Of a DNA stretch of 48,021 bases, positions 1,821 through 20,310 are shown in pieces. Position 1 is the first letter of the stretch; the number at the start of each line of letters is the position of its first letter. The position numbers and the translations under genes were made by a program. The notes below the pieces were generated by a model. The model saw only the letters and a program-made list of their open reading frames with translations. It was not told where the DNA came from and made no database searches. Origin of the DNA: Bacteroidales bacterium (GTDB taxonomy: Bacteria; Bacteroidota; Bacteroidia; Bacteroidales; UBA12170); assembly GCA_003445975.1 (NCBI GenBank), contig DMBV01000051.1, forward strand, positions 1-48,021. Direction: 5' to 3'.

Positions 1821-1850
1821 TCTAAACGGTTCTTTAATTGTTAAAAAGCA

Positions 1851-4637: not shown

Positions 4638-4851
4638 TGCTTTTTGAATTATATTTTCATCTGTTTATAATTTGTTTTTTAACTGTCAGATGGAACTCGC
4701 CATAGATAATCATGCTTCTGTGCGAGAGTGTCTCTCATGGCTCGTTTCATTTAATGATTCAATGGGCTTTCGTTTTCTGATTTATGAGAAGGCTTTGTCG
4801 ATAAAAAACAATCCTTTTTTTATTTTATTCTCTGTCGAAGAGTTTTCCTTT

Positions 4852-4859
4852 CAAATATA
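4852..4859 (-). promoter_or_regulatory. Possible Bacteroidota -7 promoter element for cbcL-imcH
   Basis: TATATTTG on the minus strand (TAnnTTTG), about 215 nt upstream of the cbcL start and just after the 4873-4910 hairpin. Confidence 0.35.
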
Positions 4860-4872
4860 TGCAAAAAACCGA

Positions 4873-4910
4873 ACAAAAGAACAAAGGAAGCAGCTCCTTT
4901 GTTCTTTTGT
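4873..4910 (-). terminator. Intrinsic terminator after the DUF5777 gene
   Basis: Perfect 16-bp inverted repeat ACAAAAGAACAAAGGA / TCCTTTGTTCTTTTGT with a 6-nt loop, followed by a T-run on the minus strand. Confidence 0.7.
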
Positions 4911-5011
4911 GAGTTATTTGTTTGCCTATTCAGATGTGCAAAAATTTGATTGCAACAGCGTTCTGAAATATACGATTCGAACGATTGATTCCCAATCAAA
5001 GCATTGAGAAT

Positions 5012-5878: not shown

Positions 5879-5889
5879 AGCTTTTGTGT

Positions 5890-6267
5890 TTAATTGTTTT
5901 TCGCACCTTGATTTATCCATGTGTATATCAATTCTGCTTCATTTGTAGTATAAAACTCCCACCGATGTGTTGTTGCATTGGGTGAAGGATAAGTATAAAT
6001 CAAAGAATTTGCAGGGTTATTTATTACAACAAAACTTCCGTTTGTTAAGCTTTGGTAAGCATTTGCAGTAGTTAAATCCGGTGCAGTTTTTCCAGTATAA
6101 TGACAAACTGTGCATTTACTGTCGGTGTTGAAAATAGGAGCAATATCATTTAGAAACGATAACTCCACGTTTGGATCAGGAGGAGGTATAACTTTTACCT
6201 CTATAAATTCATATTGACAAGCTGTGAAAGATGCCAACACACAAAAAAGAATTATTAACTTCTTCAT
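5890..6267 (-). CDS. Monoheme cytochrome c lipoprotein (planctomycete cytochrome c-like domain)
   Basis: Lipobox FTAC, SF..DIAPIF, a single CTVCH, and C-terminal LIYTWINQGAKNN. Confidence 0.78.
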   Translation of the reverse strand: MKKLIILFCVLASFTACQYEFIEVKVIPPPDPNVELSFLNDIAPIFNTDSKCTVCHYTGKTAPDLTTANAYQSLTNGSFVVINNPANSLIYTYPSPNATTHRWEFYTTNEAELIYTWINQGAKNN

Positions 6268-6411
6268 CTGCTTATATTTTTTTAATTGAATTTGAATTAC
6301 GACAAGTCAATCGTTCGTTTTTCATTTGCTGAGAACCGAGTTTTCGTTTCATCCTTTTTTTCGGTTTTACTGATTAAATTACAAATAGAACGACCCTGAA
6401 ATTTTTGATTT

Positions 6412-6453
6412 AAAAGGAACAATCATTTGTGTGCAAAAATGATTGTTCCTTTT
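6412..6453 (-). terminator. Terminator or stabilising hairpin after the hexaheme lipoprotein gene
   Basis: Perfect 17-bp inverted repeat AAAAGGAACAATCATTT / AAATGATTGTTCCTTTT, 20 nt past the stop codon. Confidence 0.7.
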
Positions 6454-6473
6454 CAGGTTATGACTAAACCAAG

Positions 6474-7511
6474 CTATTTCGTGGCCTTCAAAGCCGCAAT
6501 TGTATTTGTTAATAAGGCATTTACATACTGAGGATTGTGAACACCTAAACTACGATCTTCTTCAATTCCAATCCAGTTGTAATAGGCTTGAGCTCTAACC
6601 ATAGGATAGGTTCCGGGTACTGGTTCGTAAGCTTGATCTACTTCATACCAAGCAACTACACCAAGGCTGATGAGTAAATCTCGTAATTCAGTCAACTTTT
6701 CTTCGGTATCAAACTGAACACCCCCATAATCAAAATTCTCGGTTGCATGACATTCTTGACAAGCTGCCAGACTAGGTTTAAATGTGTGGCCGCCCTGTTT
6801 ATCAATATAATCATCCATATGACAAACTGTACAAGAAGCTTGCTCAAGATGTTTGGAAGATCCAGCTACCGGATAAGTTACTGGTCCAGTAATTTCAGCA
6901 AACCCCTGACCGGCAAAAATATTGGCTTGTGGGCCATGGTGTGGTCCATAATGTGTGTTTGTAATTCTGAAGGTTGTTGCGCCTGCGACTGATGCCGTTT
7001 GTGGTTCTGCTGTTCTGGCTTGATGGCAGTTTATGCAAAGATTGCTGCCGTCGCCAATATCTAAAACAGTCACCCCTTGGTCAATGATCAATCCAACGGG
7101 TTCTTCCGAACGTAGTGCAAAATCGGTGTAGGTAAATGCTGTATGAATGATATGGCAGGTCTCACAATTTATAGCCGAAGGCATTGAAATGTCGGAGGCT
7201 ACCAAGCCATTTGCCTGAAATTCGATAAAGCCCTCACTTGAATGGCATTGAGCACAACCAGCACGACCACCTGCATAGGCTACGTTGGTTCCCGCTTTAT
7301 GAATAGATGAAGCATACTGAAATTGCCTAGCTGAAATGGTAGTTCCCGAATGGCAAGCCAAACAAGTAACATTGCCGTCTTGTCCGTCTTGTCCGTCTTG
7401 TCCGTCTAGCCCATCTTCACCCGTTAATCCGATGGGGCCTTCTTTAACACAAGATGCTAAAAAAACAATGGCAGTCATTAGTAAAATGTGAAAAATAAAT
7501 TTGGTTTTCAT
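6474..7511 (-). CDS. Hexaheme cytochrome c lipoprotein with an N-terminal collagen-like (Gly-X-Y)8 linker
   Basis: Lipobox LASC, then GPIGLTGEDGLDGQDGQDGQDGNV and six CxxCH. The C-terminal AYYNW..IEEDRSLGVHNPQYVNALL resembles the c552/OmcB-type helical tail. Confidence 0.8.
   Translation of the reverse strand: MKTKFIFHILLMTAIVFLASCVKEGPIGLTGEDGLDGQDGQDGQDGNVTCLACHSGTTISARQFQYASSIHKAGTNVAYAGGRAGCAQCHSSEGFIEFQANGLVASDISMPSAINCETCHIIHTAFTYTDFALRSEEPVGLIIDQGVTVLDIGDGSNLCINCHQARTAEPQTASVAGATTFRITNTHYGPHHGPQANIFAGQGFAEITGPVTYPVAGSSKHLEQASCTVCHMDDYIDKQGGHTFKPSLAACQECHATENFDYGGVQFDTEEKLTELRDLLISLGVVAWYEVDQAYEPVPGTYPMVRAQAYYNWIGIEEDRSLGVHNPQYVNALLTNTIAALKATK
7375..7407 (-). repeat. In-frame 9-bp tandem repeat encoding the collagen-like G-Q-D triplets
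   Basis: (CCGTCTTGT)x3 plus CCGTCT on the plus strand. Confidence 0.9.
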
Positions 7512-7550
7512 GATCCTTTTATTTTTAGTGTATAATTTGATTATTTATGA

Positions 7551-7637
7551 CAAAAATATTTCTATGTTATTGATATAACAATGATATATTAACGAAATCA
7601 AGTTGATGTTTATCATTGAAATATTGACATATATCAT
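7551..7637 (-). promoter_or_regulatory. Promoter of the hexaheme lipoprotein gene: -7 element, TGTTAT-N4-ATAACA palindrome and tandem FNR-like boxes
   Basis: TATTTTTG (minus strand, 7551-7558); TGTTAT-TGAT-ATAACA (7565-7580); weak ATGAT-ATAT-TAACG (7581-7594); TTGAT-GTTT-ATCAT (7603-7616); TTGAC-ATAT-ATCAT (7624-7637). Confidence 0.7.
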
Positions 7638-7723
7638 CGCGATAAATCGATTATTTATACTACACTGTGCATTGAGATAGCGGCCTTGGGCCAAAGCGGA
7701 TGGATTGGTAGGAAGAATGTATA

Positions 7724-7762
7724 AAAACAAAAAAGCCCCTTTGCTGATAAGACAAAGAGGCT
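7724..7762 (-). terminator. Intrinsic terminator after the cbcA-cbcB-c554 unit
   Basis: Stem AGCCCCTTTG / CAAAGAGGCT (one G-U pair on the minus-strand RNA) followed by a T-tract on the minus strand, 20 nt past the stop at 7783. Confidence 0.65.
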
Positions 7763-7782
7763 CTAATTGAAAGAAAAATAAG

Positions 7783-8271
7783 CTAAGCGGCAGGTTTTGG
7801 GTGCGCAACTTTTGCAAGGGCTTCTTTGTAATTAAAGCCTTTGTAATGCTTGCTTTCAGGATTGTGGCACGTGACGCATACTTTTTCGGTAGGCAATATC
7901 AAACCTTTTGCCATGGAAGCTTCTCTGCTTTTCATGATGGCATTTGGGAAATATGCACTTCCTGGACCATGGCAAGATTCGCAAGAAACGCCTTCGGTCA
8001 CTTTCAAGCCTGTTACCAAATCAATCTTTACACTGCCGTGCGTAGAGTGACACTTATTGCATTTTGGATCCAAGGCTTCTGTTGCACTTAAAGATTCCAT
8101 TGCTTTTGAGTGACGCGATTCCACCCATTGTGCATACTGTCCACCGGTTTCGACTTTGTTGTGGCACATTTTGCATTTGTTAGCGCCAACGTACGTAAAT
8201 TCTTGGGCTTTCAGGCTGCTGTTTCCTATAAAAGCAACCATAAAAATTAAAATTAAAATTCTCATTTTCAT
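7783..8271 (-). CDS. Periplasmic tetraheme cytochrome c (cytochrome c554 family)
   Basis: Signal peptide LKA|Q, YVGANKCKMCH...W..S.H, CNKCH, GVSCESCHGPGS, CVTCH. Confidence 0.85.
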   Translation of the reverse strand: MKMRILILIFMVAFIGNSSLKAQEFTYVGANKCKMCHNKVETGGQYAQWVESRHSKAMESLSATEALDPKCNKCHSTHGSVKIDLVTGLKVTEGVSCESCHGPGSAYFPNAIMKSREASMAKGLILPTEKVCVTCHNPESKHYKGFNYKEALAKVAHPKPAA

Positions 8272-8351
8272 CTTTTTATTTATTTAAGTGTTTATTAATT
8301 ATTTGAATTTAAGTTTAGAATACTTCTTGAAAAGAATAAAAGTTTATTTTT

Positions 8352-8966
8352 TTAATGTTTCTCATGAAAACCGGTAAACATGCTTTTAAAATTACTCGTT
8401 GGAGTACAACCAATTGTGCAAAAATAAATGTGCACAATCAAGAAGACAGATATAAAAAAGCCCATTATTACGTGGATAATATCAGTAATATGAAGTGCCT
8501 TACTGCCGAAAATTTCAAAAATCATCAGTTCCGGAAAAAAGAGCATAAGCCCGCTTAAAGCTACCAAAGGAATGGTTAAATGCATGATGACAATATAGCT
8601 GAACTTCTGCAAAGGATTAAATTTGGATTCTTCAGTAATAGGAAAGGGCGGTTTTTCGCCTTTAAAGATTCCAAAGGAATAGTATTTAGCTTGCTTTATT
8701 AGGTTATTTACGATTCCTTTTCTGAAAATATAATGCTTCCCGTTGGGTGTTAGCACATTACCAATAAAAAATCCAAGATAACTCACCGCCAATAAGATTC
8801 CGGCAATATCGTGTAAATAAACAGCCCAATCGAAGCGAATCATTGGATAGGCCGGATCGGAATATTGCATGCTTATTCCGGTGAATATCAAAAGCAAGCA
8901 TAGGATGGCATTAGACCAATGCCAAAATCGAACCCAAACAGGATATAAATATATTTTTTCACTCAT
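8352..8966 (-). CDS. cbcB: CbcB-like diheme cytochrome b (four TM helices)
   Basis: Start re-called at ATG 8966 (MSEKIY..., 204 aa), overlapping the upstream stop by 8 nt (ATGAGTGA). Heme b His ligands in RFWHW, YLHD, IIHV and IVHIY; KFNPLQK motif. Confidence 0.75.
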   Translation of the reverse strand: MSEKIYLYPVWVRFWHWSNAILCLLLIFTGISMQYSDPAYPMIRFDWAVYLHDIAGILLAVSYLGFFIGNVLTPNGKHYIFRKGIVNNLIKQAKYYSFGIFKGEKPPFPITEESKFNPLQKFSYIVIMHLTIPLVALSGLMLFFPELMIFEIFGSKALHITDIIHVIMGFFISVFLIVHIYFCTIGCTPTSNFKSMFTGFHEKH

Positions 8967-9945
8967 GGCGCTTTTTAGAATTAAAGATGATACGTAAAGA
9001 AGCATGAATCAACAAAACAACTACCACAAGTCCGAATAAAATTATACTTATCGCATTCAGATAATAATTTCTGTTTGCTCCAATCACATACGATTCTTCT
9101 AGTATAGCATCGTTCGAAAAGCCTAAATCGCTTCGTTTATTCGTAAATTGATATTTGTACAAGGAGGCCAATAGCCGTGAATTCTTTGAATGGCATTCGA
9201 CGCATGATTTTACAGCCAATTCTTTTGGCAGTACATTGTGTGCTACCAATATTTCGTTGTTTATTTCGGTATGGCATTCAATGCAGCGCACTTTGCTAAA
9301 ATGTAAAACTTGATTTGGAAGCCATGCATGTGTTTCCAAAACATTTGGGTTGTCTTTGGTTGTAAGTAACTGATATTTACTTAAGTTGGCATGGCATGAC
9401 AGACAAATTTCGTTGTCGTATAAAATAAAATCGGCCACCTTCTCATTGGTTCGAGCGGAAATTTTATACGTATGGGGGTTGTGACACAACGAACAAGTAA
9501 AGTCATCCAAATGCTTAGACGAATGGACACTTTTGTGAAAGTCCTCTTCGATTTTTTCAAAATTATATTGAGAATGAGTATCATCGCCGGCATGGCAATC
9601 CATACATGAAAATTTTGGCTCCATACGTGCCTGACCGGAATGGGGAAATTCACCACATTCTGAAGAATGACAGTCGCCGCACAAGAAAGTTCGGTGGTTC
9701 GATGCGTAATACTCCAACGAATCAATAATAAAATAAGGATTCATACGCTGTTTGACTTCGCGTTCGGTGTTGGAGTTGAAGTACGAAAACGTAGAGTATC
9801 CATGACATTTAAAACATTCTTGATTTTGCTCGATGTTGGCAGGGTCTATCGCAATGGATTCTTCTTGTGCCAAAACAGTAGCAGTTGTTGCAAAAAGTAC
9901 AGAGAAAATCAGAAGTAAAGTGTAGATAACAAATCTCGATTTCAC
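8959..9945 (-). CDS. cbcA: CbcA-like heptaheme cytochrome c with a C-terminal membrane anchor
   Basis: 328 aa with signal peptide VLA|Q, seven CxxCH and a single C-terminal TM helix (ISIILFGLVVVVLLIHASL). Translationally coupled to the cytochrome b gene, as in Geobacter cbcAB. Confidence 0.75.
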   Translation of the reverse strand: MKSRFVIYTLLLIFSVLFATTATVLAQEESIAIDPANIEQNQECFKCHGYSTFSYFNSNTEREVKQRMNPYFIIDSLEYYASNHRTFLCGDCHSSECGEFPHSGQARMEPKFSCMDCHAGDDTHSQYNFEKIEEDFHKSVHSSKHLDDFTCSLCHNPHTYKISARTNEKVADFILYDNEICLSCHANLSKYQLLTTKDNPNVLETHAWLPNQVLHFSKVRCIECHTEINNEILVAHNVLPKELAVKSCVECHSKNSRLLASLYKYQFTNKRSDLGFSNDAILEESYVIGANRNYYLNAISIILFGLVVVVLLIHASLRIIFNSKKRHE

Positions 9946-10398: not shown

Positions 10399-11097
10399 TT
10401 AACTATTACTGATCTTGGTCAATGAATTTAATTTAACAATTTCCACTTGATTTCTGTTCACTTTGATAATGCCGGCGTCTTTCAGCTCCTTGAGCGTGCG
10501 AATAAAACTTTCTTTTGTCATGGCGGCTAGATCGGCCAAATCTTGACGGCTTAAGTTTAGTGTAAACCTTTCACTCTCATAAATTTCATTTTGTAAGTAT
10601 AGCAAAACTTCAGCTACTCGACCGGCCATGCTTTTATAAGTAAGATTGGCTAGTTTATGCGTAAACTGGATGCTGTTTTGATTTGTCAGCGTAATCATCT
10701 CAATAGCCATTACTTTGCTTTTTTCTATCACCGCTTCAATATCTTTTGTTGCAATCAAACAAAGATTCACATCTGTCAGAGCTTGAACAGTCAGATGATG
10801 AATGTTGTCGGTATATAGACCAATTCCGCTACAAATTCTTCCTGCTCCAACAATATTCACGAGCATATTGCTGCCTTCCGGTCGCTCGTAGTAAACTTTT
10901 GCCATTCCCTCTCTAAAACAGGCAAAATGAGTGAGAGCGGTGCCTTGTTTAAAGATAACTTCCCCAGCTTTAAAAACAACTTCTTTGCGTTCCGAATGGA
11001 GCTCGTTGAATTCAGTTTTGGATAGTTTTCGAAATAAGGGTGGGGTGCTTTCGCAGCAGCAAATAGTACACGTTCCGTAATGAATACAATCTCTCAT
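10399..11097 (-). CDS. Crp/Fnr family transcriptional regulator with a Cys-rich N-terminus
   Basis: cNMP-binding-like domain (FKAGEVIFKQG...EGMAKVY) and HTH LSRQDLADLAAMTKESFIRTL. The N-terminus MRDCIHYGTCTICCC has five Cys. Confidence 0.9.
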   Translation of the reverse strand: MRDCIHYGTCTICCCESTPPLFRKLSKTEFNELHSERKEVVFKAGEVIFKQGTALTHFACFREGMAKVYYERPEGSNMLVNIVGAGRICSGIGLYTDNIHHLTVQALTDVNLCLIATKDIEAVIEKSKVMAIEMITLTNQNSIQFTHKLANLTYKSMAGRVAEVLLYLQNEIYESERFTLNLSRQDLADLAAMTKESFIRTLKELKDAGIIKVNRNQVEIVKLNSLTKISNS

Positions 11098-11421: not shown

Positions 11422-12426
11422 ATGATGAAGTTTGGAATGGGATTGTTATTTTTCTTTGTTCTGCAGTCGGCTATGGCTCAAAGGACTTCGAGTGTTCAGA
11501 ACAATTTGGTTACGGATAATATACTCATCCAATGGATAAATCAATACCCCAGTCCAGGCAATAAGAATACCCACAGGTCTTTTTTTGAACAAGTAGCTCG
11601 CATTGTTTTTGGTAAGAAAAGCGGATTAAACATTCGAAAACCGAATGCCGTTCTAGCCAAAAGTCCTATTTCTTATACTATCATGGATCAGGGAAATGAG
11701 GTTCTTTTCAATGTTGAAAATGAGGAAATGCGAATTCCTAAAGGATTCAAAAAAACAAAATTTTATTTCCCTTCCTTGGTAAGTATGTGTTATCTTTCAA
11801 GCACTCTGGTCTTGTTTACGGATTCCAAATTGAATCAGCTATTTTTGTTAGACCAAGTCCGCGAAACTTTAGGATTGTTCAACACAGACATAATACTCAA
11901 TCAGCCAACCGGAATTGCTTATTCTGTTTTGAGTAATGAAATTTGGGTTGTTGAGACGGGCGCTCACCGCATTCAAATATTTACCGAAAAGGGAGCACTT
12001 GTAAAAACAATTGGCGGTAGAGGTTCTGAGCCAGGTGAATTCAATTATCCTACGGCCATCTGGATTGATAAAAATGGAAAGGCTTATATTATCGATTCGA
12101 TGAATTTTAGAATTCAGGTGTTTGATTCCGCCGGAAAGCTTGTTTCGGTTTTTGGGGAACCAGGCGATGCTAGTGGCTATTTTGCCCGGCCAAAAGGAAT
12201 TGCTACCGATTCGTTTGGGAATATATATATTACGGATGCTTTGTTTCATACAGTTCAAATTTTCGACTTGTCGGGCAATTATTTATATAATTTTGGAGAA
12301 CAAGGCAGAGGAAACGGACAGTTTTGGATGCCTTCAGGTATTTTTATTGATGAGAATAATTTTATTTATATAGCAGATAGTTACAATTCAAGGATTCAAG
12401 TATTTCAACTTAATAAAAATGAGTAA
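11422..12426 (+). CDS. NHL-repeat 6-bladed beta-propeller protein (secreted)
   Basis: Signal peptide AMA|Q and repeated NHL motifs (GEFNYPTAIWID..G..YI.DS.N.RIQVF, FARPKGIATD, FWMPSGIFID). Confidence 0.88.
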   Translation: MMKFGMGLLFFFVLQSAMAQRTSSVQNNLVTDNILIQWINQYPSPGNKNTHRSFFEQVARIVFGKKSGLNIRKPNAVLAKSPISYTIMDQGNEVLFNVENEEMRIPKGFKKTKFYFPSLVSMCYLSSTLVLFTDSKLNQLFLLDQVRETLGLFNTDIILNQPTGIAYSVLSNEIWVVETGAHRIQIFTEKGALVKTIGGRGSEPGEFNYPTAIWIDKNGKAYIIDSMNFRIQVFDSAGKLVSVFGEPGDASGYFARPKGIATDSFGNIYITDALFHTVQIFDLSGNYLYNFGEQGRGNGQFWMPSGIFIDENNFIYIADSYNSRIQVFQLNKNE

Positions 12427-14101
12427 AATGAAGAGAACTACATTTCTTATACTACTTGGATTGATTTATTTTTCTTTATCAGTTAACGCTCAGTCAATTA
12501 GAACCACAAAGCATAATTTGTCGGTTACAAGCCCGGGAACTATCAAAGCCACCACGGAAAGCGAAATCTGCATTTTTTGTCATACTCCACACAATAGTAC
12601 ACCCAAGGTTCCATTGTGGAATAGAAACGTAGCAGGAAGTGTTTATACCTTGTACACAAGTTCTACCTTGAACGCCACCGAAGGTCAGCCCGATGGAGCT
12701 TCTATTTTATGCCTTTCCTGTCATGATGGATCGATCGCTTTGGGGAGTGTTGTGAGTAGAATTTCTCCGATAGATATGACGCTTGCATTGAGTTCAGACG
12801 CAAATTTATCAACCGATTTATCAAACGATCATCCAATTTCGTTTTTGTATAATAGTACATTGGCTACCTCTGACGGGCAATTGAGAACTCCGCCATTAAC
12901 TACAACGCACCTCGATAACAATTCAAAATTACAATGTTCGTCCTGCCATGACCCGCACAAAGACCTTTATCCTAATTTTTTGTTGGCATCAAATCTAAAT
13001 TCAGGACTTTGTATTTTGTGTCACAGCAGAACGTATTGGGCGAGCTGCACACATGCTTCTTCGAGCAAGACTTGGAATGGCTCGGGCTTAAATCCTTGGG
13101 CACATATCGAAACTCCTTACCCTACAGTTTCACAAAACGCATGTGCCAATTGCCATAATGTGCACAATGCCAATGGAAAACTTCGCTTGCTTAAATTAGT
13201 TCCAGAAGAAAGTAACTGCCTAGATTGCCACAATGGAAATGTAGCCAGCAAAAATATTCAATCACAGTTTGCCAAAATATATAAACATAATATATATGGA
13301 TACAATAATATTCACGATCCCGCCGAAGCGACTTCGGTAACAACAAAACATGTTGAATGTCAGGATTGTCATAATTCCCACGCATCGAATGCGAGCACGG
13401 CCACTGCGCCTTTTGTTTCGGGGTATAATGTTGGTGTAAGTGGGATAAATCAGAGTGGTGTAGCTGTATCGTCGGTGAGTAATACTTACGAAATATGCTA
13501 TAAGTGTCACGCTGGCAATTCTTGGTCGCCACCGGCTGCTTTGCCGCGAAAAATAAGTCAGAATAATGTTCGATTGGAATTTGCCACCGGAAATCCGTCG
13601 TTTCATCCGGTAGTTGGATCTACCATTACCAACTCGCCAAGCATAATTCCGCCCCTCACTACGGGCTCTAAAATTTATTGCACTAATTGCCACGGAAGTG
13701 ATAATAGCAGCGACCCCAGAGGTCCTCACGGCTCCTTGTATCCGCAAATATTGAAATTGCAATATACAAGCATTGATAATACAGTTGAATCGCCTACGGC
13801 GTATGCGCTTTGTTACAGCTGCCACAGCAGAACCAGTATTTTGAGCGACAATACGTTTAAAAAACATTTTGTTCACGTAGTTACTGCAAAAACCCCATGC
13901 AGCGTTTGCCACGACGCGCACGGAATAAGTAATATACAAGGCAATAGCACCAATAATTCACATCTTATCAATTTTAGAACAGATGTGGTGGTAGGTATAG
14001 GCGCTTTATTGCGTTTGGAGTTTGTGGATAGAGGCGACCGAAGTGGATATTGTGTTTTAAAATGCCACAATAAAGTACATGGTTCTGGAATGTCCTATTA
14101 G
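12419..14101 (+). CDS. 12-heme cytochrome c: N-terminal OmcE-like tetraheme module fused to an 8-heme extension
   Basis: 11 CxxCH plus C-terminal CVLKCH. The N-terminal SIRTTKHNLS, CIFCHTPHN, PLWNR, LCLSCHDG, TDLSNDHPISF and CSSCHDPH mirror OmcE motifs. The start overlaps the NHL stop. Confidence 0.8.
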   Translation: MSKMKRTTFLILLGLIYFSLSVNAQSIRTTKHNLSVTSPGTIKATTESEICIFCHTPHNSTPKVPLWNRNVAGSVYTLYTSSTLNATEGQPDGASILCLSCHDGSIALGSVVSRISPIDMTLALSSDANLSTDLSNDHPISFLYNSTLATSDGQLRTPPLTTTHLDNNSKLQCSSCHDPHKDLYPNFLLASNLNSGLCILCHSRTYWASCTHASSSKTWNGSGLNPWAHIETPYPTVSQNACANCHNVHNANGKLRLLKLVPEESNCLDCHNGNVASKNIQSQFAKIYKHNIYGYNNIHDPAEATSVTTKHVECQDCHNSHASNASTATAPFVSGYNVGVSGINQSGVAVSSVSNTYEICYKCHAGNSWSPPAALPRKISQNNVRLEFATGNPSFHPVVGSTITNSPSIIPPLTTGSKIYCTNCHGSDNSSDPRGPHGSLYPQILKLQYTSIDNTVESPTAYALCYSCHSRTSILSDNTFKKHFVHVVTAKTPCSVCHDAHGISNIQGNSTNNSHLINFRTDVVVGIGALLRLEFVDRGDRSGYCVLKCHNKVHGSGMSY

Positions 14102-14146
14102 CTATTTTGTTTTTTTTAATCGAAATCATAAAAAAATACATGTAAA

Positions 14147-14205
14147 TTGATATATATCAACGAATAAGTGAATATTTTGTTATACATTTGTGAAAAATAT
14201 AACAG
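14147..14205 (+). promoter_or_regulatory. Promoter of the OmcE-like gene: perfect FNR box, -7 element and a Rex/CRP-like palindrome over the start site
   Basis: TTGAT-ATAT-ATCAA (14147-14160), a 22-nt spacer, TACATTTG (14183-14190), then TTGTGAA-AAAT-ATAACAG (14188-14205). Confidence 0.8.
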
Positions 14206-14237
14206 TGTTTAATTAATAACATATAACTATTTGCCTT

Positions 14238-14864
14238 ATGAAAACTTTAAATTTACTCGCTGCATTTTGTTTTGCGGTGTTTTTTTCGACAATGGGTTTT
14301 GGTCAAATTGCCGGATCTGCCCATGATTTCACTACTGAGAGCTGGAACTCCTCCGGTGAAATGTGTAATGCTTGCCATACACCACACAATTCGTTAACAA
14401 TTGCCGATGCTCCGTTGTGGGATCACCAAGTGAGTGTTGCCACTTTTACACTTTACACTTCCCCAACTATGAATGGAACATTTGGTGTAGGTGCACAGCC
14501 CTCAGGATCGTCAAAATTGTGCTTAAGCTGTCATGATGGGACAGTAGCTCTTGACAACTTTGGTGGAGTTACCACGGGAACTAATTTTATTACAGGTGTT
14601 GGTAATGTTGGCATTGATTTATCTAATGACCATCCAGTTTCTTTTACTTACGATGCTGCTTTGGCTACTGCTGATGGTGGTTTGTTCAACCCAACCACAG
14701 CAAATAGCGGTCTGGGTAGCACGGTCACTGCCGACTTGTTGTATGCCGGAAAAGTAGAATGTTCTTCTTGTCACGATGTGCACAGAGGCGGAAGTGCAAC
14801 AGGAAAATTATTGGTTAAGTCGAATGCTGCAAGTGCGCTTTGTTTAACATGTCACGACAAATAG
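14238..14864 (+). CDS. omcE: OmcE-like tetraheme cytochrome c, candidate cytochrome nanowire subunit
   Basis: 208 aa with a Sec signal and four CxxCH. The motif order SAHDF, CNACHTPHN, PLWD, FTLYTS.TMN, SKLCLSCHDG, DLSNDHPVSF, ECSSCHDVH and terminal LCLTCHDK matches Geobacter OmcE as recalled. Four conserved distal His allow bis-His ligation of all hemes. Confidence 0.82.
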   Translation: MKTLNLLAAFCFAVFFSTMGFGQIAGSAHDFTTESWNSSGEMCNACHTPHNSLTIADAPLWDHQVSVATFTLYTSPTMNGTFGVGAQPSGSSKLCLSCHDGTVALDNFGGVTTGTNFITGVGNVGIDLSNDHPVSFTYDAALATADGGLFNPTTANSGLGSTVTADLLYAGKVECSSCHDVHRGGSATGKLLVKSNAASALCLTCHDK

Positions 14865-14920: not shown

Positions 14921-15175
14921 CATAATTCGCTTACTGATAGTGTGATGAAGCTTACTTATAAAAGGTGGTTTTTTTGTATTGTCGTTTTTATTTAAAATTC
15001 GCACAAGCTTAAATCAGTATTTGCTACTTACGACATTTTTTGGGAACGGCTATGCCTGTTTTTTTGTTAAACCCTAATTGTTAATTACTTAAAACAAGTT
15101 TTGTTCGAATCGAAAAATAAATACACTATCTTTAAAGAAAAACTATACGATTGCAAATTTAAAGAATCCCAACTA

Positions 15176-16276
15176 ATGAAAACTAAACTAAATCTCTCCT
15201 CCATTTTATTACTTCTCTTTCCGCTATTTTTTATTTCGTGTTCGCCTCGTCTAAAAAAGGAGATTGCTGTTGAGTCTGTTTTATATCCTGCAGCCCCTAG
15301 TGTGGCAAAAATTCAGTACCTTACAAGTATTAGCAATTCTTTGCAGATTACAAAAAAGCAAACTTCCTTACAGAAGACGGTGGTTGGCGAGAAAAAAGGA
15401 ATGCCAATTTACAAGCCGTATGGTGTATTTATCCGAAACGGAAAGCTTTATATCTGCGATATTTCTTTAGGTGGATTAGAAATCATCGATTTGGAGAATA
15501 AGGACTTTCAGTATTTTGTGCCACAAGGTGTCAATAGTCTGAAAATGGCCATCAACGTTTTTGTTGATTTGGATAATACGCGCTATATTGTAGATGCGGA
15601 TTTGCATCGGGTAGTTATTTTTGATGAATCTGGAAAATACCAAACCGCCTTTGGCTTTGATGAAAATACCAAGCCCACAGGAGTCTTTGTTTATAAAACC
15701 GAAATTTTTGTGGTTGATTCGGAAAATCATCGGGTGAATGTTTATGATAAACAAGACAAAAGCTTTAAGTTTTATTTCCCAAAATCCAATCCCGGCGACG
15801 ACAATTTTTTGTACAAGCCAACAAACCTCACCGTGGAAAACGACAAAGTTTATGTTAGTGATTTAGGTGCCGGTGATGTTAAGATTTATTCCTTAAACGG
15901 AAAATATTTAAGAAAAATTGGGCAATATGGTAGGAATATTGGAGATTTTGTTCGCCCCAAAGGAGTGGCAGTAGATCGGGAGGAGAATTTGTATGTTGTA
16001 GATGCAAGTTTCGAAAATATTCAGATATTTAATAAAGAAGGGAAATTGCTTATGTTTTTTGGAGGCCATTATGAAGGCGCGGGCGGAATGTGGTTGCCTA
16101 CCAGCGTAGTGATCGATTATGATAATTTAGCGTATTTCGAAAAATATGTGGACCCCAAATATAAATTGGAATATTTAATTATTGTAGCCAATCAGTTTGG
16201 TCCAGATAAGGTAAATATTTATGGGCGTATTAATCCTATTGTCGAGAAAGCGGACGTTGGTAAAAATAAAAACTAA
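15176..16276 (+). CDS. NHL-repeat beta-propeller lipoprotein
   Basis: Start re-called at ATG 15176 (366 aa). Lipobox FFISC and NHL blades (KPYGV, KPTNL, GDFVRPKGVAVD, GGMWLPTSV). Confidence 0.85.
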   Translation: MKTKLNLSSILLLLFPLFFISCSPRLKKEIAVESVLYPAAPSVAKIQYLTSISNSLQITKKQTSLQKTVVGEKKGMPIYKPYGVFIRNGKLYICDISLGGLEIIDLENKDFQYFVPQGVNSLKMAINVFVDLDNTRYIVDADLHRVVIFDESGKYQTAFGFDENTKPTGVFVYKTEIFVVDSENHRVNVYDKQDKSFKFYFPKSNPGDDNFLYKPTNLTVENDKVYVSDLGAGDVKIYSLNGKYLRKIGQYGRNIGDFVRPKGVAVDREENLYVVDASFENIQIFNKEGKLLMFFGGHYEGAGGMWLPTSVVIDYDNLAYFEKYVDPKYKLEYLIIVANQFGPDKVNIYGRINPIVEKADVGKNKN

Positions 16277-16373: not shown

Positions 16374-17216
16374 TTGAAAAACGTGAAGGCCAAATATATT
16401 TATTATATTTTCTTTACAATTTCATTCATTTGGTCTTGTTCGCCAAAACAGAGTTATACGATTAAGTCGTTTTTTTTCGACGGCGTTCCAAATCCATTTC
16501 TTGAAGAAGTGGCTATTCTGGAAGACAGTTCTCAACTTAGCCTCGCTGGTACAAATAATGATATTGCAACTGTCATGGTACCAAAAGAGGAGTTTATTCT
16601 TCACGAGCCTTACAAAACGCGAGATTGCTCGAGCTGTCACGACAGAAATCAAATGGGAAAACTCAAACTGCCTACTCCAAATCTGTGCAATCTATGTCAC
16701 GAAGATTTCACTATAACCTTTCCCGTTGTTCACGGACCAGTAGTTTCGGGAAGCTGTTCGCAGTGTCACGAGCCGCATCAGTCGAAATTAAAAAGTTTAT
16801 TAAAACAGCCCACTCAGGAGCTTTGTATTGCTTGTCACGAAACTCATTTTAGTGAAGAAAACCGCATTCACAAATCAGTATCTGAGAAAATTTGTACGGA
16901 ATGCCACGATCCACACGGCGGGAAGGATAGATTCTTGTTGGAATCGGGAATTTGCTACAAATGCCACACCGATTTTGAAAGCAAATTTAAAATTTTGCAT
17001 GGCCCCGTTTATACACAATCCTGTTTCCTTTGTCATGGAACTCATGCCAGCAAAACGGAAAAATTATTGATCAAACCGGTGAATGAGTTGTGTTTAGGAT
17101 GCCATGAAAGCAACGCTATTTTTTCGGGCAGTTACCATATTGGTGCCGAAAAAGCGGAGTGTACTAGTTGTCATAGTCCGCATGGCGGCTCCGATTTCAA
17201 ATTACTTTTAAACTAG
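16374..17216 (+). CDS. Nonaheme cytochrome c, doubled-CxxCH (cytochrome c3 / DmsE-like) family, probable lipoprotein
   Basis: TTG start, possible lipobox FIWSC, an FFFDGVP motif, and nine CxxCH in repeated HGPV..G.C..CH.PH.S...LL......LC..CH units. Confidence 0.82.
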   Translation: MKNVKAKYIYYIFFTISFIWSCSPKQSYTIKSFFFDGVPNPFLEEVAILEDSSQLSLAGTNNDIATVMVPKEEFILHEPYKTRDCSSCHDRNQMGKLKLPTPNLCNLCHEDFTITFPVVHGPVVSGSCSQCHEPHQSKLKSLLKQPTQELCIACHETHFSEENRIHKSVSEKICTECHDPHGGKDRFLLESGICYKCHTDFESKFKILHGPVYTQSCFLCHGTHASKTEKLLIKPVNELCLGCHESNAIFSGSYHIGAEKAECTSCHSPHGGSDFKLLLN

Positions 17217-17225
17217 TCAGGCGCT

Positions 17226-19208
17226 ATGAAAAGACTATTTTTAATATACAATATTCTTTTCTTCACTTTGGGTGTTGTGGCGCAAAATTACACTGATCAG
17301 ACGGCTTTTTGGAAATTGACTTCTTTTGATGGTGAGTTTAATTTGAAAGGAGTTTATTTGGATCAGAAAATAAAACGAAATGCATTTGAGGAACGAATTA
17401 CAAGGAAATTTTTAACAGGTGGGCTGTTTTTCAATACCACCAGCTATGTTTGGCATCCAAATTTCTTGGCATTGAAACTTGATGGCGGATACAGCCCGGA
17501 AACAGGGCAGGAGCTTTCTTTGGTCGCTCCCGATCGTTCGGAGGTGAATACTTTGAAGAAATTAAATGCATCCATTCTGCTTTTTCAACACAACAAAATG
17601 AATGTAATGGCTTTTACAAATCTTTATGAAGGCTTTAGCAATCGGGAAAATCTAACGAATCTAAAAACAAAAACCTTTGATTGGGGAGGTGTGTATGCGT
17701 ATAACAATAAATATTTACCCTTTTCCATTTCTTATATTCAAAGGCGAAATGATCAATCAGAATTGGCCAATAATAGAAGTTATAGAATAGGAAGTTCGAA
17801 TATTTTGGCAAGTACGAGTAAGTCGTTTGGTTTTAATGACAACCATCTGTTTACAATTTCTCAAAACAGCTATTCTTATGACGACAATCTTGTGCCTACC
17901 GAAAATGAAACAGCAGCCAATCTAGTTGAAAACAGGGTTTTAAGTTGGCAATTAAAAGATAATTTCTTTCTGGATGCTAAGAAAAAGTATCGATTTACTT
18001 CGTCCATCTCGAACGAAAATCAAAAAGGGACTTATTATGACTATCAGCGGTTTCAGTTGATGGAAAATCTTACTTTAAAGCTTCCGGCAAATTTTAATTT
18101 TTCCAGCAGTTACAACTTTTTTAATATCGAAACGAATACGGAGAGGCTCAAGCAACAATTTGTAAAGGGAGATTTGACCCATCAGCTTTATCAAAGTGTT
18201 CGGACCATTGCAACTTTTGAATACCATTTTATTCATAGTTTGCAATATCAAGAGATCAATCAGAAAGCGGGAATCGATATCAATTATGTAAAAAAAATTC
18301 CGCTAAAAGGACTTTTATCTATTTCGTATAGTTTGAGAAGCAACAATCAAAACCGCACAAGCGCCAATAAAATTCTCACTGTTCAGAATGAAGAATACGC
18401 GATTTCGGACAGCAGAATGGTATTGCTGAGCAGACAAAATATACTTTTGGAATCGGTAATAGTAAAAGATGAAACCGGAACAATTCTTTACACTTTAAAT
18501 ATCGATTATTTACTGATCGTAAGAAATGAATTAGTTGAGATACAGCGCATTCCAGGAGGCAGAATTGCAGATAACTCATTGGTATATATCGACTATACCG
18601 CTATTCAGCCCGGCTCTTATGATTACAATGCAATTCATAAAAGTCTATTTGCTAGCGTGTCGGTTTTGGATAAAAAATTCGAAATCTATTTTAGAAACTC
18701 CACTCAAGATTATATTGCTCCCCAAAGCATCAGTTTCTTAACGCTGGATTATTTTACGCAAAAAATATATGGTTGTAGGATAAATTTTGGATTTTTTACA
18801 GCCGGTGTTGAGCAAGATAATTTTGAAAGCACGATCATTCCGTATAGGCTAATCAGATACTTTTTTGTTTTGCAGGGAGATATTAAACAGAAACTGATGT
18901 ACACGCTCAATGGAACTGTACGCGATTATCAAATGATTATTCAGGAAGGAACTACGCAGCAATATTATAATTTTACGGGAGCTATTGCTTATACTATCAA
19001 TCCGAACATCCGGCTCAACATAAATGGATCCTATCTAAAACAGAGCGGTGATGGAATAGAATTGAATCTTTTTACCTCCCGAATGGAATTAAGTGCGCGG
19101 ATATTACAGCTTTATATCAAAGCCGGAATGGAGCTTTATTCAAATAGGTTTTACACCGAAAATCTTGATTATAAGAAATTTGAAATCGTGGTTTCAAGAA
19201 AATTTTAA
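17226..19208 (+). CDS. Large outer-membrane beta-barrel protein (putative porin or secretion channel of a porin-cytochrome conduit)
   Basis: 660 aa with signal peptide VVA|Q, extensive alternating aromatic/polar strands, C-terminal FEIVVSRKF and no heme motifs. It lies between two multiheme cytochrome genes. Confidence 0.72.
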   Translation: MKRLFLIYNILFFTLGVVAQNYTDQTAFWKLTSFDGEFNLKGVYLDQKIKRNAFEERITRKFLTGGLFFNTTSYVWHPNFLALKLDGGYSPETGQELSLVAPDRSEVNTLKKLNASILLFQHNKMNVMAFTNLYEGFSNRENLTNLKTKTFDWGGVYAYNNKYLPFSISYIQRRNDQSELANNRSYRIGSSNILASTSKSFGFNDNHLFTISQNSYSYDDNLVPTENETAANLVENRVLSWQLKDNFFLDAKKKYRFTSSISNENQKGTYYDYQRFQLMENLTLKLPANFNFSSSYNFFNIETNTERLKQQFVKGDLTHQLYQSVRTIATFEYHFIHSLQYQEINQKAGIDINYVKKIPLKGLLSISYSLRSNNQNRTSANKILTVQNEEYAISDSRMVLLSRQNILLESVIVKDETGTILYTLNIDYLLIVRNELVEIQRIPGGRIADNSLVYIDYTAIQPGSYDYNAIHKSLFASVSVLDKKFEIYFRNSTQDYIAPQSISFLTLDYFTQKIYGCRINFGFFTAGVEQDNFESTIIPYRLIRYFFVLQGDIKQKLMYTLNGTVRDYQMIIQEGTTQQYYNFTGAIAYTINPNIRLNINGSYLKQSGDGIELNLFTSRMELSARILQLYIKAGMELYSNRFYTENLDYKKFEIVVSRKF

Positions 19209-19236: not shown

Positions 19237-20310
19237 ATGAAAGCATTTAGAAAATTACAATCGAAGCCCCTTAGTTCTAGGAGGATTATTTTTGCTGTAT
19301 TGATGCCCGTATTTGCCCTTGTTTTTTTCAATACAGTTGCTTTGGGGCAAGAGCCATCTTGCAGAGATTGCCACAAAAGCATAGTGGGGAAAAGTTTTAT
19401 TCATGGGCCGGTTGATTCGGATTGCTTGTTTTGTCATGAATCGAATGGCGAACAGCATCCAAAGCCAAAAGTGAAAGGTTTTACCATTGCACAGAAAGGC
19501 GCCGATTTGTGCTATTCCTGTCATACCGAAGAACACAGTGCAAACACCAAAAATAAATTTGTACACGTCGCGTTGTCCGAAGGCACTTGTCTCGATTGTC
19601 ATGAGGTTCATAGTTCGGATGAGGCCAAATTTATTTCTACCAAGCTGCCCGAATTGTGCAATACTTGTCATTACGAGACTGAACAAGCAATAGCTAAATC
19701 GGCAGTTGTTCATTTGCCTATAAAGGATAAGGGAAGCTGCGCAAATTGCCACTCGGCGCATTCTTCAAACGAAAGTAGGCTGTTAAAAAGCAATGAAAAA
19801 ACACTTTGTTTGAGTTGTCACAATAAGGAGATTAAATCTGCCAAAAGAGAAATTGCAAATATTTCGAAGATTGTAGAGCAAGCAAAAACGCAACACGCGC
19901 CGCTAAACGATGGCTGTTCAATTTGCCACAATCCGCACGCTTCGAATTTTTCCAGTTTATTAACCATGTCTTATCCTGCGGGGAATTATGCGCCAGGAAA
20001 AGAATCGAACTACGACTTGTGTTTTGGATGTCATGATGTGGAGGCTTTGACCCAAGAAAAAACCAAATTTGCTACCCGTTTTCGGAACGGAGAAAAAAAT
20101 CTGCATTTTCTTCATGTGAACAAAGAAAAAGGGCGTTCGTGCAGGAATTGCCACAGTGTTCACGGCTCTGCGAAAGAACATCTGATTGCCGAAACGGTGG
20201 TGTTTGGGAAATGGACGATGCCATTAAACTACGTTCCTACTGAAAATGGCGGTTCGTGTTCCACGGGCTGTCATAAAGATTGGAAATACGATCGAACAAA
20301 AATCCAATAG
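19237..20310 (+). CDS. Periplasmic 11-heme cytochrome c, doubled-CxxCH family
   Basis: Signal peptide ALG|Q, ten CxxCH plus C-terminal CSTGCH, and the tail T.FRNG..NLHFLHV...KGRSCRNCH. Confidence 0.85.
   Translation: MKAFRKLQSKPLSSRRIIFAVLMPVFALVFFNTVALGQEPSCRDCHKSIVGKSFIHGPVDSDCLFCHESNGEQHPKPKVKGFTIAQKGADLCYSCHTEEHSANTKNKFVHVALSEGTCLDCHEVHSSDEAKFISTKLPELCNTCHYETEQAIAKSAVVHLPIKDKGSCANCHSAHSSNESRLLKSNEKTLCLSCHNKEIKSAKREIANISKIVEQAKTQHAPLNDGCSICHNPHASNFSSLLTMSYPAGNYAPGKESNYDLCFGCHDVEALTQEKTKFATRFRNGEKNLHFLHVNKEKGRSCRNCHSVHGSAKEHLIAETVVFGKWTMPLNYVPTENGGSCSTGCHKDWKYDRTKIQ

Follow-up and report, generated by a model that had tools for sequence, protein, structure and literature searches.

It is a stated question of the field how cytochrome nanowires begin and end, how they are anchored, and how they are wired to the cell, and the model organisms have no candidate protein for these tasks. 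In OmcE filaments, a histidine from the neighbouring subunit ligates heme 2 (PMC12203936; PMC9473688). A tip or stopper for OmcE wires has been asked for, and none has been found in Desulfuromonadia operons (Petersen et al. 2025). The 48,021-nt stretch of Bacteroidales DNA analysed here (the window) encodes a cytochrome in which an OmcE-like module is fused to eight further hemes. We ask whether this fusion protein could be the missing end-piece, as a preliminary description of the DNA had proposed.

Architecture of the fusion cytochrome

The gene and its parts occupy the following positions.

12419–14101, + strand: fusion cytochrome, 560 aa, 12 hemes (open reading frame; 11 CxxCH and 1 CxxxCH; AlphaFold2 pLDDT 92)
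12419–12490, + strand: signal peptide, residues 1–24 (model helix 4–24; followed by the invariant Q25)
12491–13033, + strand: OmcE module, residues 25–205, hemes 1–4 (matches to 7tfs and 9yuq; Foldseek match to 7TFS)
13034–14098, + strand: eight-heme extension, residues 206–560 (C242, C267, C314, C360, C421, C465, C494, C545)

The fusion is a secreted 12-heme wire, of which the N-terminal third is a true OmcE-fold tetraheme module. The motif count agrees with the preliminary description, which had read four hemes followed by eight, the last of them CVLKCH. The CxxCH cysteines are C51, C98, C173, C198, C242, C267, C314, C360, C421, C465, and C494, and the CxxxCH motif CVLKCH is at C545. None of the 12 motifs varies among 45 close homologs, and 89 homologs down to 32% identity retain all or nearly all of them. 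Their retention is therefore far beyond chance.

The leader lacks a lipobox cysteine and is predicted to be cleaved after VNA, which makes Q25 the first mature residue. In accordance, Q is found at position −7 from H32 in 118 of 119 homologs. The coupling to an upstream propeller gene noted earlier is present in the sequence, the propeller frame (11422–12426) overlapping the annotated ATG of the fusion by 8 nt. The homologs begin at M4 (ATG 12428), 1 nt past the propeller stop codon, and M4 is likely the true start.

The N-terminal module belongs to the OmcE family

Residues 10–203 of the fusion match G. sulfurreducens OmcE (7tfs_A) with an E value of 2.1e-32 (phmmer), covering chain residues 9–231, and D. 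soudanensis OmcE (9yuq) with 6.5e-24. With a family profile, the values are 8.1e-45 and 3.4e-33, respectively. The AlphaFold2 model, for which 89 diverse sequences are needed as input, has a pLDDT of 92.0 and a pTM of 0.88; with the 45 close homologs only, the pLDDT is 38.7 and the model is unusable. Searched against the PDB with Foldseek, the model has 7TFS as its sole significant match (E 1.4e-8, TM 0.67 on the target, 203 columns).

The module carries its heme cysteines at C51, C98, C173, and C198 and its distal histidines at H32, H58, H138, and H180. These cysteines and all eight OmcE ligand histidines are 100% conserved in 79 fusion modules and align with those of G. sulfurreducens and D. 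soudanensis OmcE, and H32 is invariant down to 32% identity. The N-terminal arm reads QSIRTTKH32NLS; its SIxxTKHNLS motif resembles the Geobacter-type arm, and PLWNR is kept, both being among the motifs that the preliminary description had found close to OmcE. The arm His lies 19 residues before the first Cys in the fusion, compared with 18–22 in the Geobacter type and 14 in the short paralogs described below. The module thus shares with OmcE (GSU0618, PDB 7TFS; D. soudanensis, PDB 9YUQ) the fold, similarity over the whole subunit by both sequence and structure, the four CxxCH motifs, the four distal histidines including the arm His, the arm motif, and PLWNR.

The arm and the heme-1 and heme-2 regions (residues 30–68 and 85–114) are the most conserved stretches of the fusion. 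Residues 51–70, inside this region, are the sole low-confidence part of the model, which would be in keeping with a surface dependent on a binding partner.

The fusion differs from OmcE in what follows heme 4. OmcE has ~200–230 aa and ends two residues past heme 4; the fusion has 355 aa and eight hemes more. Family members that stand alone (~200–260 aa) share this end point, and 184 of 184 stand-alone homologs terminate in CxxCH-x-K, two residues past the last motif (64/64 short paralogs, 120/120 Geobacter-type OmcE). The extension starts exactly where these proteins stop. The fusion also differs from OmcE in coexisting with a second, divergent stand-alone paralog.

In an unrooted tree of three groups, which as such is silent on whether Geobacter OmcE is sister to the fusion module, the fusion modules and the Geobacter-type OmcE proteins are each monophyletic (98/100 bootstraps). 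The HMM scores of Geobacter-type OmcE lean weakly to the fusion module (mean +4.9 bits).

The eight-heme extension

The extension continues for 355 aa from the very C-terminus of the module and opens with a conserved junction, RTYW..H212..S..W. H212 and 10 other non-motif histidines of the extension are at least 90% conserved. That H212 acts in cis like the histidine of a neighbouring subunit would be pure conjecture. H554, considered as the residue closing the last heme, was dropped, as it is not conserved family-wide.

No significant relative of the extension is found in the PDB by sequence, profile, or fold (Foldseek). Its profile matches paired-CXXCH cytochromes of the same cluster, cyt357 with an E value of 1e-20 and cyt280 with 8e-19. 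A candidate reading in which the extension comprises OmcE modules two and three, making the protein a 'covalent trimer' (hhalign probability 96.8%), was dropped as specific evidence, because controls give 95–99% between any paired-CXXCH cytochromes and because the extension is nearer to cyt357 and cyt280 than to OmcE. What is kept, purely as a description, is a grammar of six [CxxCHxxH ... CxxCH] units.

The Pfam domain II/IV of MtrC/MtrF (PF22113) gives a partial match above cut-off over residues 236–368. MtrC/OmcA-type decahemes have a lipoprotein signal, two pentaheme domains, and two beta-barrel domains; in the fusion, the leader has no lipobox, the PF22113 match is the only sign of this architecture, and Foldseek returns no match to the structures of MtrC, MtrF, or OmcA. 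OcwA of Thermincola potens (PDB 6I5B) is weakly similar over residues 243–329 (E 0.009), and MtrA/DmsE-type paired-CXXCH cytochromes are represented by partial DmsE-family and NrfB matches. The OcwA, DmsE, and NrfB matches all fall below family cut-offs and have no Foldseek counterpart. On the predicted model, the eight-heme extension is structurally new.

These likenesses bear on an alternative in which the fusion is an independent multiheme oxidoreductase, extracellular or reaching from the periplasm to the surface, that uses the OmcE fold as a reusable tetraheme block and makes no filament-type joint to the short paralog. Electrons would then pass by transient collisions, or the fusion would serve as the outer partner of the porin conduit. 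Multiheme cytochromes do evolve by module fusion (PMC11492766), the extension is like the generic paired-CXXCH cytochromes of its own cluster, and the PF22113 match points the same way. The missing lipoprotein signal does not, as it sets the fusion apart from MtrC and OmcB. Nor does this alternative explain why the whole OmcE arm and ligand set are under the strongest conservation. We regard it as possible but rather unlikely, and further evidence on both sides comes from the neighbouring genes.

The fusion is encoded beside a short OmcE paralog

Two features follow the fusion gene directly.

14102–14237, + strand: AT-rich spacer, 136 nt, between fusion and short paralog (from the sequence)
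14238–14864, + strand: short OmcE paralog, 208 aa, 4 hemes (7tfs E 4e-23; ends CxxCH-x-K)

The short paralog, which the preliminary description had placed directly downstream, is thus 136 nt away and is 36% identical to the fusion. The fusion module is closer to OmcE than this stand-alone protein is (115.7 versus 85.7 bits against 7TFS), again as first described. A scan for sigma-70 promoters and terminators finds fewer sites than in shuffled sequence and is uninformative. At the corresponding position, loci L084–L086 hold a HAMP/HisKA sensor kinase and a sigma-54 (Sigma54_activat) regulator.

The proposed check that such fusions always accompany short omcE homologs turns out positive in 38 of 38 fusion loci that have 7 kb or more of flank on each side. 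With the short paralog as the starting point, the fusion is present at 4 of 4 loci, and none of the four Geobacter-type OmcE clusters examined contains it. Because it is always found beside a short free-standing copy of OmcE, the fusion is an end-piece candidate for nanowires. The constant presence of the short paralog is left unexplained if the fusion is an independent oxidoreductase.

The fusion family is old and widespread. It occurs in at least 596 species genomes and at least 11 phyla (among 80 loci kept), forms 549 clusters at 50% identity, and has more than 5000 homologs that are collinear over the full length. Among the cultured carriers are Lutibacter profundi, Ignavibacterium album, Carboxylicivirga marina, and Aestuariivivens sediminis; Caldithrix abyssi is a further carrier. 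Members occur in Gamma- and Betaproteobacteria as well. Among 101 diverse full-length members, 77 have 11 CxxCH motifs. The size of ~560 aa and the 11+1 motifs are fixed across phyla, whereas the cytochromes encoded nearby have anywhere from 5 to 24 hemes. An independent oxidoreductase would not explain this fixed heme number and length, as the true outer cytochromes of the cluster vary.

The short paralog carries a ninth conserved histidine, H63, in PLWDH. The site is His in 91% of 65 short paralogs and Arg in 116 of the 116 Geobacter-type OmcE proteins in which the motif is found. Petersen et al. (2025) predicted a stopper with nine His and four hemes. This make-up belongs to the short paralog, not to the fusion, so that of the two proteins the short one is the better match to that prediction. 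Therefore, the major and minor roles could differ from those assumed in the preliminary description, and the short paralog, with a ninth His absent from proven filament formers, may not polymerise. In metatranscriptomes, the short paralog is the only gene of the cluster seen, as one 354-nt RNA contig in one sample; this single contig is a hint at abundant transcripts of the short gene and rare ones of the fusion.

The roles could then be reversed, so that the fusion itself polymerises, its OmcE modules forming the core chain and the eight-heme parts 'leaky', brush-like side branches, with the nine-His paralog as terminator. The fusion module has the make-up of proven filament formers (eight His, PLWNR, Geobacter-type arm and spacing), and the match of the short paralog to the predicted nine-His, four-heme stopper (Petersen et al. 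2025) fits as well. Geobacter-type OmcE scores nearer to the fusion module than to the short paralog, its upstream propeller scores nearer to NHL1 than to NHL2, and five-heme 'leaky' OmcE-like proteins have already been proposed in the literature. However, the strict C-terminal rule suggests that not one extra residue is tolerated in stand-alone subunits. A 355-aa domain at this position would in all likelihood prevent stacking. In addition, the only RNA signal is that of the short gene. We consider a polymerising fusion very improbable.

Neighbouring genes

The remaining genes of the cluster are listed below.

10399–11097, − strand: Crp/Fnr-type regulator, divergent from the cluster (cNMP_binding, HTH_Crp_2)
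11422–12426, + strand: NHL1, six-bladed NHL beta-propeller with an SPI-type signal (Pfam NHL 4.6e-26, DUF5128 2e-19)
15101–16276, + strand: NHL2, beta-propeller lipoprotein (Pfam NHL, DUF5128; lipobox FISC, then YPxPPDTxRIQYL)
16374–17216, + strand: cyt280, 9-heme paired-CXXCH lipoprotein cytochrome (Paired_CXXCH_1 6e-44)
17226–19208, + strand: 660-aa protein with signal peptide and C-terminal Phe (position kept in 32/38 well-flanked loci)
19237–20310, + strand: cyt357, 11-heme cytochrome (Paired_CXXCH_1 1e-42)

In 68 of 73 related loci, the gene immediately upstream of the fusion encodes an NHL protein, and NHL2 follows the short paralog in 50 of 66 cases. NHL1 is thus paired with the fusion and the paralogous NHL2 with the short paralog. 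We take NHL1, which has an SPI-type leader whereas NHL2 is a lipoprotein, to be the dedicated partner gene of the fusion. A propeller partner of its own, paralogous to that of the short subunit, is a further feature that an independent oxidoreductase leaves unexplained.

Cyt280 is syntenic in related loci and has partial matches to the GSU2203 and DmsE families, both below cut-offs; it is likely the periplasmic side of the conduit. The 660-aa protein matches no Pfam or NCBIfam family. By analogy with the barrel of OmcE clusters and with UetC, it is presumed to be a large outer-membrane beta-barrel. Cyt357 matches the 370-aa cytochrome encoded upstream of Geobacter omcE, the first in the G. sulfurreducens OmcE cluster (phmmer E 6e-64). 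It is absent from several Ignavibacteria and Calditrichia clusters, and in clusters without it the fusion could be the outer cytochrome of a porin–cytochrome complex, which would favour the oxidoreductase alternative.

The neighbourhood thus resembles that of OmcE in Geobacter and Desulfuromonas, where a large barrel and a beta-propeller are also encoded. An OmcE-type cluster comprises one or more beta-propeller lipoproteins, a pair of multiheme cytochromes, and a large barrel, to which NHL1, NHL2, cyt280, cyt357, and the presumed 660-aa barrel correspond here. The Geobacter-type clusters sampled differ in having no fusion.

The linkage to barrel and propeller genes would also suit an assembly factor: a primer or plug, sitting in the periplasm or lodged in the barrel, that would initiate or gate the export of the short subunit and be absent from the finished structure. 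The chaperone-usher analogy in the literature (Petersen et al. 2025) is in line with such a factor. Twelve conserved hemes would nonetheless be costly for a non-redox role, and all heme ligands are conserved family-wide. We consider a purely assembly-related function very unlikely.

Likeness to the uet cluster

The fusion probably corresponds to UetJ, the 'undecaheme' cytochrome of the uet cluster, a likening made by description and not by sequence. UetJ, encoded in uetABCDEFGHIJ of Ca. Tenderia electrophaga (Eddie et al. 2022, bioRxiv 10.1101/2022.05.06.490989), has 11 CXXCH motifs, the count that the fusion has without its CxxxCH (12 with it), and carries the same generic annotation, 'doubled CXXCH / cytochrome c3 family'. 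Like UetJ, the fusion is a secreted cytochrome with 11 CXXCH and no other domain. In the uet cluster, an NHL gene lies directly upstream of uetJ, and the other members include the extracellular tetraheme UetA, another NHL protein, and the large barrel UetC; matching neighbours surround the fusion. Gallionellaceae homologs of the uet cluster have also been reported (PMC10734462).

The two clusters differ in their remaining genes. The UetDEG trihemes, the cupredoxin UetF, the PPIase UetB, and the downstream ccsAB-nrfG-bat genes are all missing from the cluster in the window, which has 9- and 11-heme cytochromes in place of UetDEG, UetF, and UetB. Nor is the Tenderia arrangement matched by the genes that follow the fusion in L062 and L079, two gammaproteobacterial loci.

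The proposal made in the Uet papers is electron uptake, and OmcE is not mentioned there (Eddie et al. 2022; PMC10734462); an interaction between UetJ and UetA has been suggested (Eddie et al. 2022). UetJ is reportedly highly expressed in Ca. Tenderia and was modelled as a free bar-shaped heme wire (Eddie et al. 2022). Both the model and the expression level speak for an independent oxidoreductase, and high expression does not fit a rare minor subunit.

Discussion

We tentatively favour the reading that the fusion is a one-per-wire end-piece that docks the short paralog, and we place its probability slightly short of even. This reading builds on the observed architecture, module fold, ligand conservation, synteny, and C-terminal length rule. 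The minor end subunit of the preliminary description draws partial support from the co-occurrence, the C-terminal rule, the separate propeller, and the retained ligands and arm; incorporation of the protein into a wire, at whichever end, is a prediction.

In the proposed mechanism, the extension would permanently fill the face of the module near the C-terminus and heme 4, against which another subunit would otherwise pack, and the opposite face (N-terminal arm, heme 1, and heme 2) would be free for head-to-tail joining with the short paralog. The joint would be of the OmcE type, one subunit supplying the His that completes a heme in the next. The position of the C-terminus at the polymer interface is presumed here, and the swapped His is likewise putative. 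The docking of fusion and short paralog, the number of one fusion per wire, and the location of the protein are all predicted in this mechanism. The eight extra hemes would pass electrons between the OmcE-type chain and a further partner, which would be the conduit of barrel and lipoprotein cytochrome if the fusion is a base or anchor, and a mineral or a partner cell if it is a tip. The NHL propellers, one per OmcE-type protein, may be periplasmic handling or assembly factors. The short paralog could either polymerise further or form a finite complex of the fusion and one short subunit, with 16 hemes.

Tip, adaptor, and terminator subunits of chaperone-usher pili and minor pilins offer a parallel. 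They have one competent and one blocked interface and are encoded with the major subunit and an outer-membrane pore, and the field itself has raised the chaperone-usher analogy for nanowires (Petersen et al. 2025). The analogy is functional only, as there is no homology, and a His–heme bond and heme stacking take the place of strand exchange. The OmcS paralogs OmcT and GSU2501 are similar to the fusion in being kept beside a filament subunit and a conserved secretion/maturation block (PMC12977616), but they belong to an unrelated sequence family, are OmcS-sized, and are not fusions. OmcE filaments are formed by G. sulfurreducens and D. soudanensis, which have no fusion protein of this kind (Petersen et al. 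2025), and the fusion is therefore no general requirement.

A broader version of the end-piece reading would have two-component OmcE-type wires outside Desulfuromonadia, with the fusion as initiator or anchor (or tip) and the nine-His paralog as a self-capping subunit. The product would be either nanowires that grow from a primer or a 16-heme wire of defined length running through the barrel, and the homopolymeric OmcE of Geobacter would be a stripped-down descendant of the N-terminal module of the fusion. We think this version conceivable but doubtful.

The fusion family supplies a testable candidate for the end of a nanowire, and its gene lies within the same operon-like cluster. Two simple markers in the sequence, the ninth His and the length rule at the C-terminus, could sort OmcE-like genes of metagenomes into functional classes. 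In addition, the family ties together OmcE nanowires, which serve electron export, and the Uet 'undecaheme' conduit, which serves electron uptake from cathodes and in iron oxidisers, and suggests that the OmcE and Uet systems are versions of one machine.

The fusion gene and its OmcE module

The fusion gene and the stand-alone short paralog lie in the window as follows.

12419–14101, + strand: fusion gene, a real open reading frame of 560 aa
14238–14864, + strand: short paralog of 208 aa with four hemes, 136 nt downstream of the fusion gene
14424–14426, within 14238–14864: codon of H63, the ninth histidine of the short paralog (PLW-x-H)

The fusion contains 11 CxxCH motifs (C51, C98, C173, C198, C242, C267, C314, C360, C421, C465, and C494) and one CxxxCH motif (CVLKCH, at C545), in accordance with the preliminary description of four hemes followed by eight more ending in CVLKCH. 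The whole protein can be described as six CxxCHxxH ... CxxCH units. For the 12 hemes, 15 non-motif histidines are at least 90% conserved, including H212, ten residues past the last heme histidine of the module. The N-terminus is a leader of the signal-peptidase-I type and has no lipobox. The annotated ATG (12419) overlaps the upstream propeller gene, NHL1, by 8 nt; because homologs begin at M4, the true start is likely ATG 12428, one nucleotide past the propeller stop codon.

Residues 10–203 match OmcE of G. sulfurreducens (7tfs_A, E = 2.1e-32) and D. soudanensis (9yuq, E = 6.5e-24), and a profile from 45 homologs matches them with E-values of 8.1e-45 and 3.4e-33, respectively. AlphaFold2 with close homologs only gives a pLDDT of 38.7, but 89 sequences down to 32% identity yield a usable model (pLDDT 92.0, pTM 0.88). 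Its one significant Foldseek match in the PDB is 7TFS (E = 1.4e-8, probability 1.00; TM 0.67 on the target, 203 columns, 37% identity). Judged by profiles and prediction, the OmcE module is genuine. Residues 51–70 (window 12569–12628) are the sole low-confidence stretch of the model (pLDDT 53–54 vs 92 overall) and fall within the most conserved region (heme-1 motif to PLWNR loop).

As had been proposed, the module resembles OmcE more closely than the stand-alone gene does (115.7 vs 85.7 bits against 7TFS). Its arm (SIxxTKHNLS), His-to-Cys1 spacing (19), and PLWNR are as in Geobacter-type OmcE, whereas the short paralog differs (QIAGSAHDFS, spacing 14, PLWDH). By scores, Geobacter OmcE and its upstream propeller are slightly nearer to the module and NHL1 than to the short paralog and NHL2, the propeller that follows it; the tree does not settle the orthology of Geobacter OmcE.

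The eight-heme extension

Residues 206–560 have no solved relative by sequence or profile (best hit OcwA 6I5B, E = 0.009) or by fold (Foldseek against the PDB). An hhalign match at 96.8% suggested further OmcE modules, but any pair of paired-CXXCH cytochromes scores likewise in controls. Because of these non-specific controls, and because the extension is nearer to the other cytochromes of the cluster (E = 1e-20 and 8e-19) than to OmcE, this claim is withdrawn.

Gene neighborhood

Open reading frames were called in 80 loci and classed with the proteins of the window. In 68 of 73 loci, the gene immediately upstream of the fusion encodes an NHL propeller; the exceptions are two loci with the presumed outer-membrane barrel before the fusion and three ORF-calling artefacts. 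A stand-alone short paralog is present in all 38 loci flanked by 7 kb or more on each side, and the barrel in 32 of them. Conversely, starting from short-paralog homologs, a fusion of 559–565 aa is found in 4/4 loci. A second propeller comes next after the short paralog in 50 of 66 cases; it is a lipoprotein, whereas the partner propeller of the fusion has a plain signal peptide.

The minimal OmcE cluster of Desulfuromonadia comprises two cytochromes, two propellers, OmcE, and a barrel, and the window cluster is the same plus the fusion. The fusion is absent from the four Geobacter-type OmcE clusters examined, consistent with Petersen et al. 2025.

In three of these four loci (L084 6895–9754, L085 6823–9687, and L086 6204–9027), a HAMP/HisKA kinase and a sigma-54 response regulator lie between the fusion and the short paralog; judging by this arrangement, the short gene and downstream genes would be regulated apart from the NHL1–fusion pair. 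The window has a divergent Crp/Fnr regulator in their stead (10399–11097). In Lutibacter profundi (L083, complete genome CP013355), the propeller before the fusion (7065–8077) is split into ORFs of 122 and 191 aa, which could reflect a frameshift or pseudogene. A DUF5777 membrane beta-barrel gene occurs near the cluster in both the window (5012–5920, − strand) and L. profundi (1779–2474), an association that may be conserved.

Upstream of the window cluster (297–9945, − strand) is a block of genes for electron transfer in the inner membrane and periplasm. Their products are a NapC/NirT-like cytochrome of 507 aa, a CbcL-like 928-aa multiheme cytochrome with cytochrome b561 fused to it, a multiheme cytochrome of 345 aa, a tetraheme cytochrome resembling c554, and cytochrome b561 with a 328-aa multiheme cytochrome. 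By gene content, block and cluster make up a predicted full quinol-to-cell-surface path.

Some clusters have extra OmcE-like genes at the far end (L020 20159–20842, L069 20476–21162, and L083 16486–16938). Two encode 227–228 aa with five CxxCH motifs, resembling the 'five-heme OmcE-like' class of Petersen et al.; that of L. profundi encodes 150 aa with four hemes. A third, divergent short OmcE-like subfamily, with a heme-1 motif lacking the CxxCHxxH histidine and without the PLW motif, lies directly upstream of the NHL1–fusion pair in Cyclobacteriaceae and Roseivirgaceae loci:

L012 3505–4128
L016 6668–7285
L028 5757–6389
L065 8349–8981

L016 and L065 have it alongside the usual short paralog; on the shorter contigs L012 and L028, no other short paralog was detected.

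Two sequence rules

Every one of the 64 short paralogs and 120 Geobacter-type OmcE homologs stops exactly two residues past the last CxxCH, usually with x-K, and the extension of the fusion begins exactly where these stand-alone proteins end. The residue after PLWN is Arg in 116/116 Geobacter-type OmcE with the motif found, and Arg or Lys in 65/79 fusion modules. In the short paralogs accompanying fusions, it is His in 91%, across phyla, giving nine conserved histidines for four hemes. This matches exactly the make-up that Petersen et al. 2025 predicted for a 'stopper', whereas the fusion module has the eight-histidine make-up of proven polymer formers. The C-terminal length and the ninth histidine are, at the level of sequence, two new rules.

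Family and expression

The protein search returns more than 5000 relatives. The best 120 are all full-length (~560 aa) and are named only 'cytochrome c3 family' or 'doubled CXXCH'; neither Pfam nor NCBIfam has a family-specific model. An exhaustive search gives 5545 clusters at 50% identity (549 with E of at most 1e-30), nearly all of them collinear from end to end. In a diverse set of 101 full-length representatives, 11 CxxCH occur in 77 and a single CxxxCH in 72. A genome scan finds matches in at least 596 species genomes, and the 80 loci kept come from Bacteroidota (36), Pseudomonadota (11), Calditrichota (9), Ignavibacteriota (7), Nitrospirota (5), and six other groups. The family is large and old.

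The window derives from a sediment metagenome. In a groundwater metatranscriptome (runs X12 and X13), a 354-nt contig is 99% identical to window 14257–14610, within the short paralog only and covering none of the other cluster genes; none of the indexed RNA runs contains the fusion gene. This single contig hints weakly that the short gene is the abundant transcript. The source assembly also contains a second contig of lower depth (15.2x vs 47.6x) that matches only short patches (12318–12407, 14295–14329, and 15986–16065) at ~85% identity and different spacing; the sediment may also harbor a related population whose cluster is rearranged.

A possible end-piece

According to PMC12203936 and PMC9473688, heme 2 in OmcE filaments is completed by a histidine from the neighboring subunit, and the four hemes of OmcE superpose on hemes 3–6 of OmcS. 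A 2025 review counts the anchoring and assembly of cytochrome nanowires among open questions. The best-supported reading, which we favor tentatively, is that the fusion is an end-piece. The extension would occupy one side of the OmcE module in cis, leaving the opposite face to bind the short paralog by a contact of the OmcE type, and onward electron transfer would run through the eight additional hemes. The proposed docking face is the most conserved part of the fusion and includes the low-confidence stretch. That the fusion is an independent cytochrome making no filament-type contact is somewhat less likely. The fusion could be either base or tip, and the short paralog either polymer-forming or part of a finite 16-heme complex, a choice on which the ninth histidine advises caution. 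Least probable is that the fusion forms a homopolymer with the short paralog as its cap, and a primer or plug serving assembly only is hardly more probable. The minor end subunit first envisaged is supported in part: a short paralog accompanies the fusion in all 38 well-flanked loci, but the nine-histidine 'stopper' make-up belongs to the short paralog, not to the fusion.

The uet cluster of Ca. Tenderia electrophaga encodes tetraheme UetA, barrel UetC, two NHL proteins, and 'undecaheme' UetJ, with uetJ directly after the second NHL gene (Eddie et al. 2022, 10.1101/2022.05.06.490989). UetJ was modelled as a bar-shaped heme wire, and the authors put forward an interaction or polymerisation of UetJ and UetA as possible; OmcE is never mentioned. 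The fusion family is probably UetJ-like, a likeness drawn from description rather than sequence. Unlike the uet cluster, the window is without UetB and UetD–G. A 2026 peat preprint reports, with no further analysis, 'OmcE-like' cytochrome models from clusters with multiheme cytochromes of 8–13 hemes. The window cluster represents a system of the OmcE/Uet type in which one member is a twelve-heme fusion and its partner carries nine histidines.
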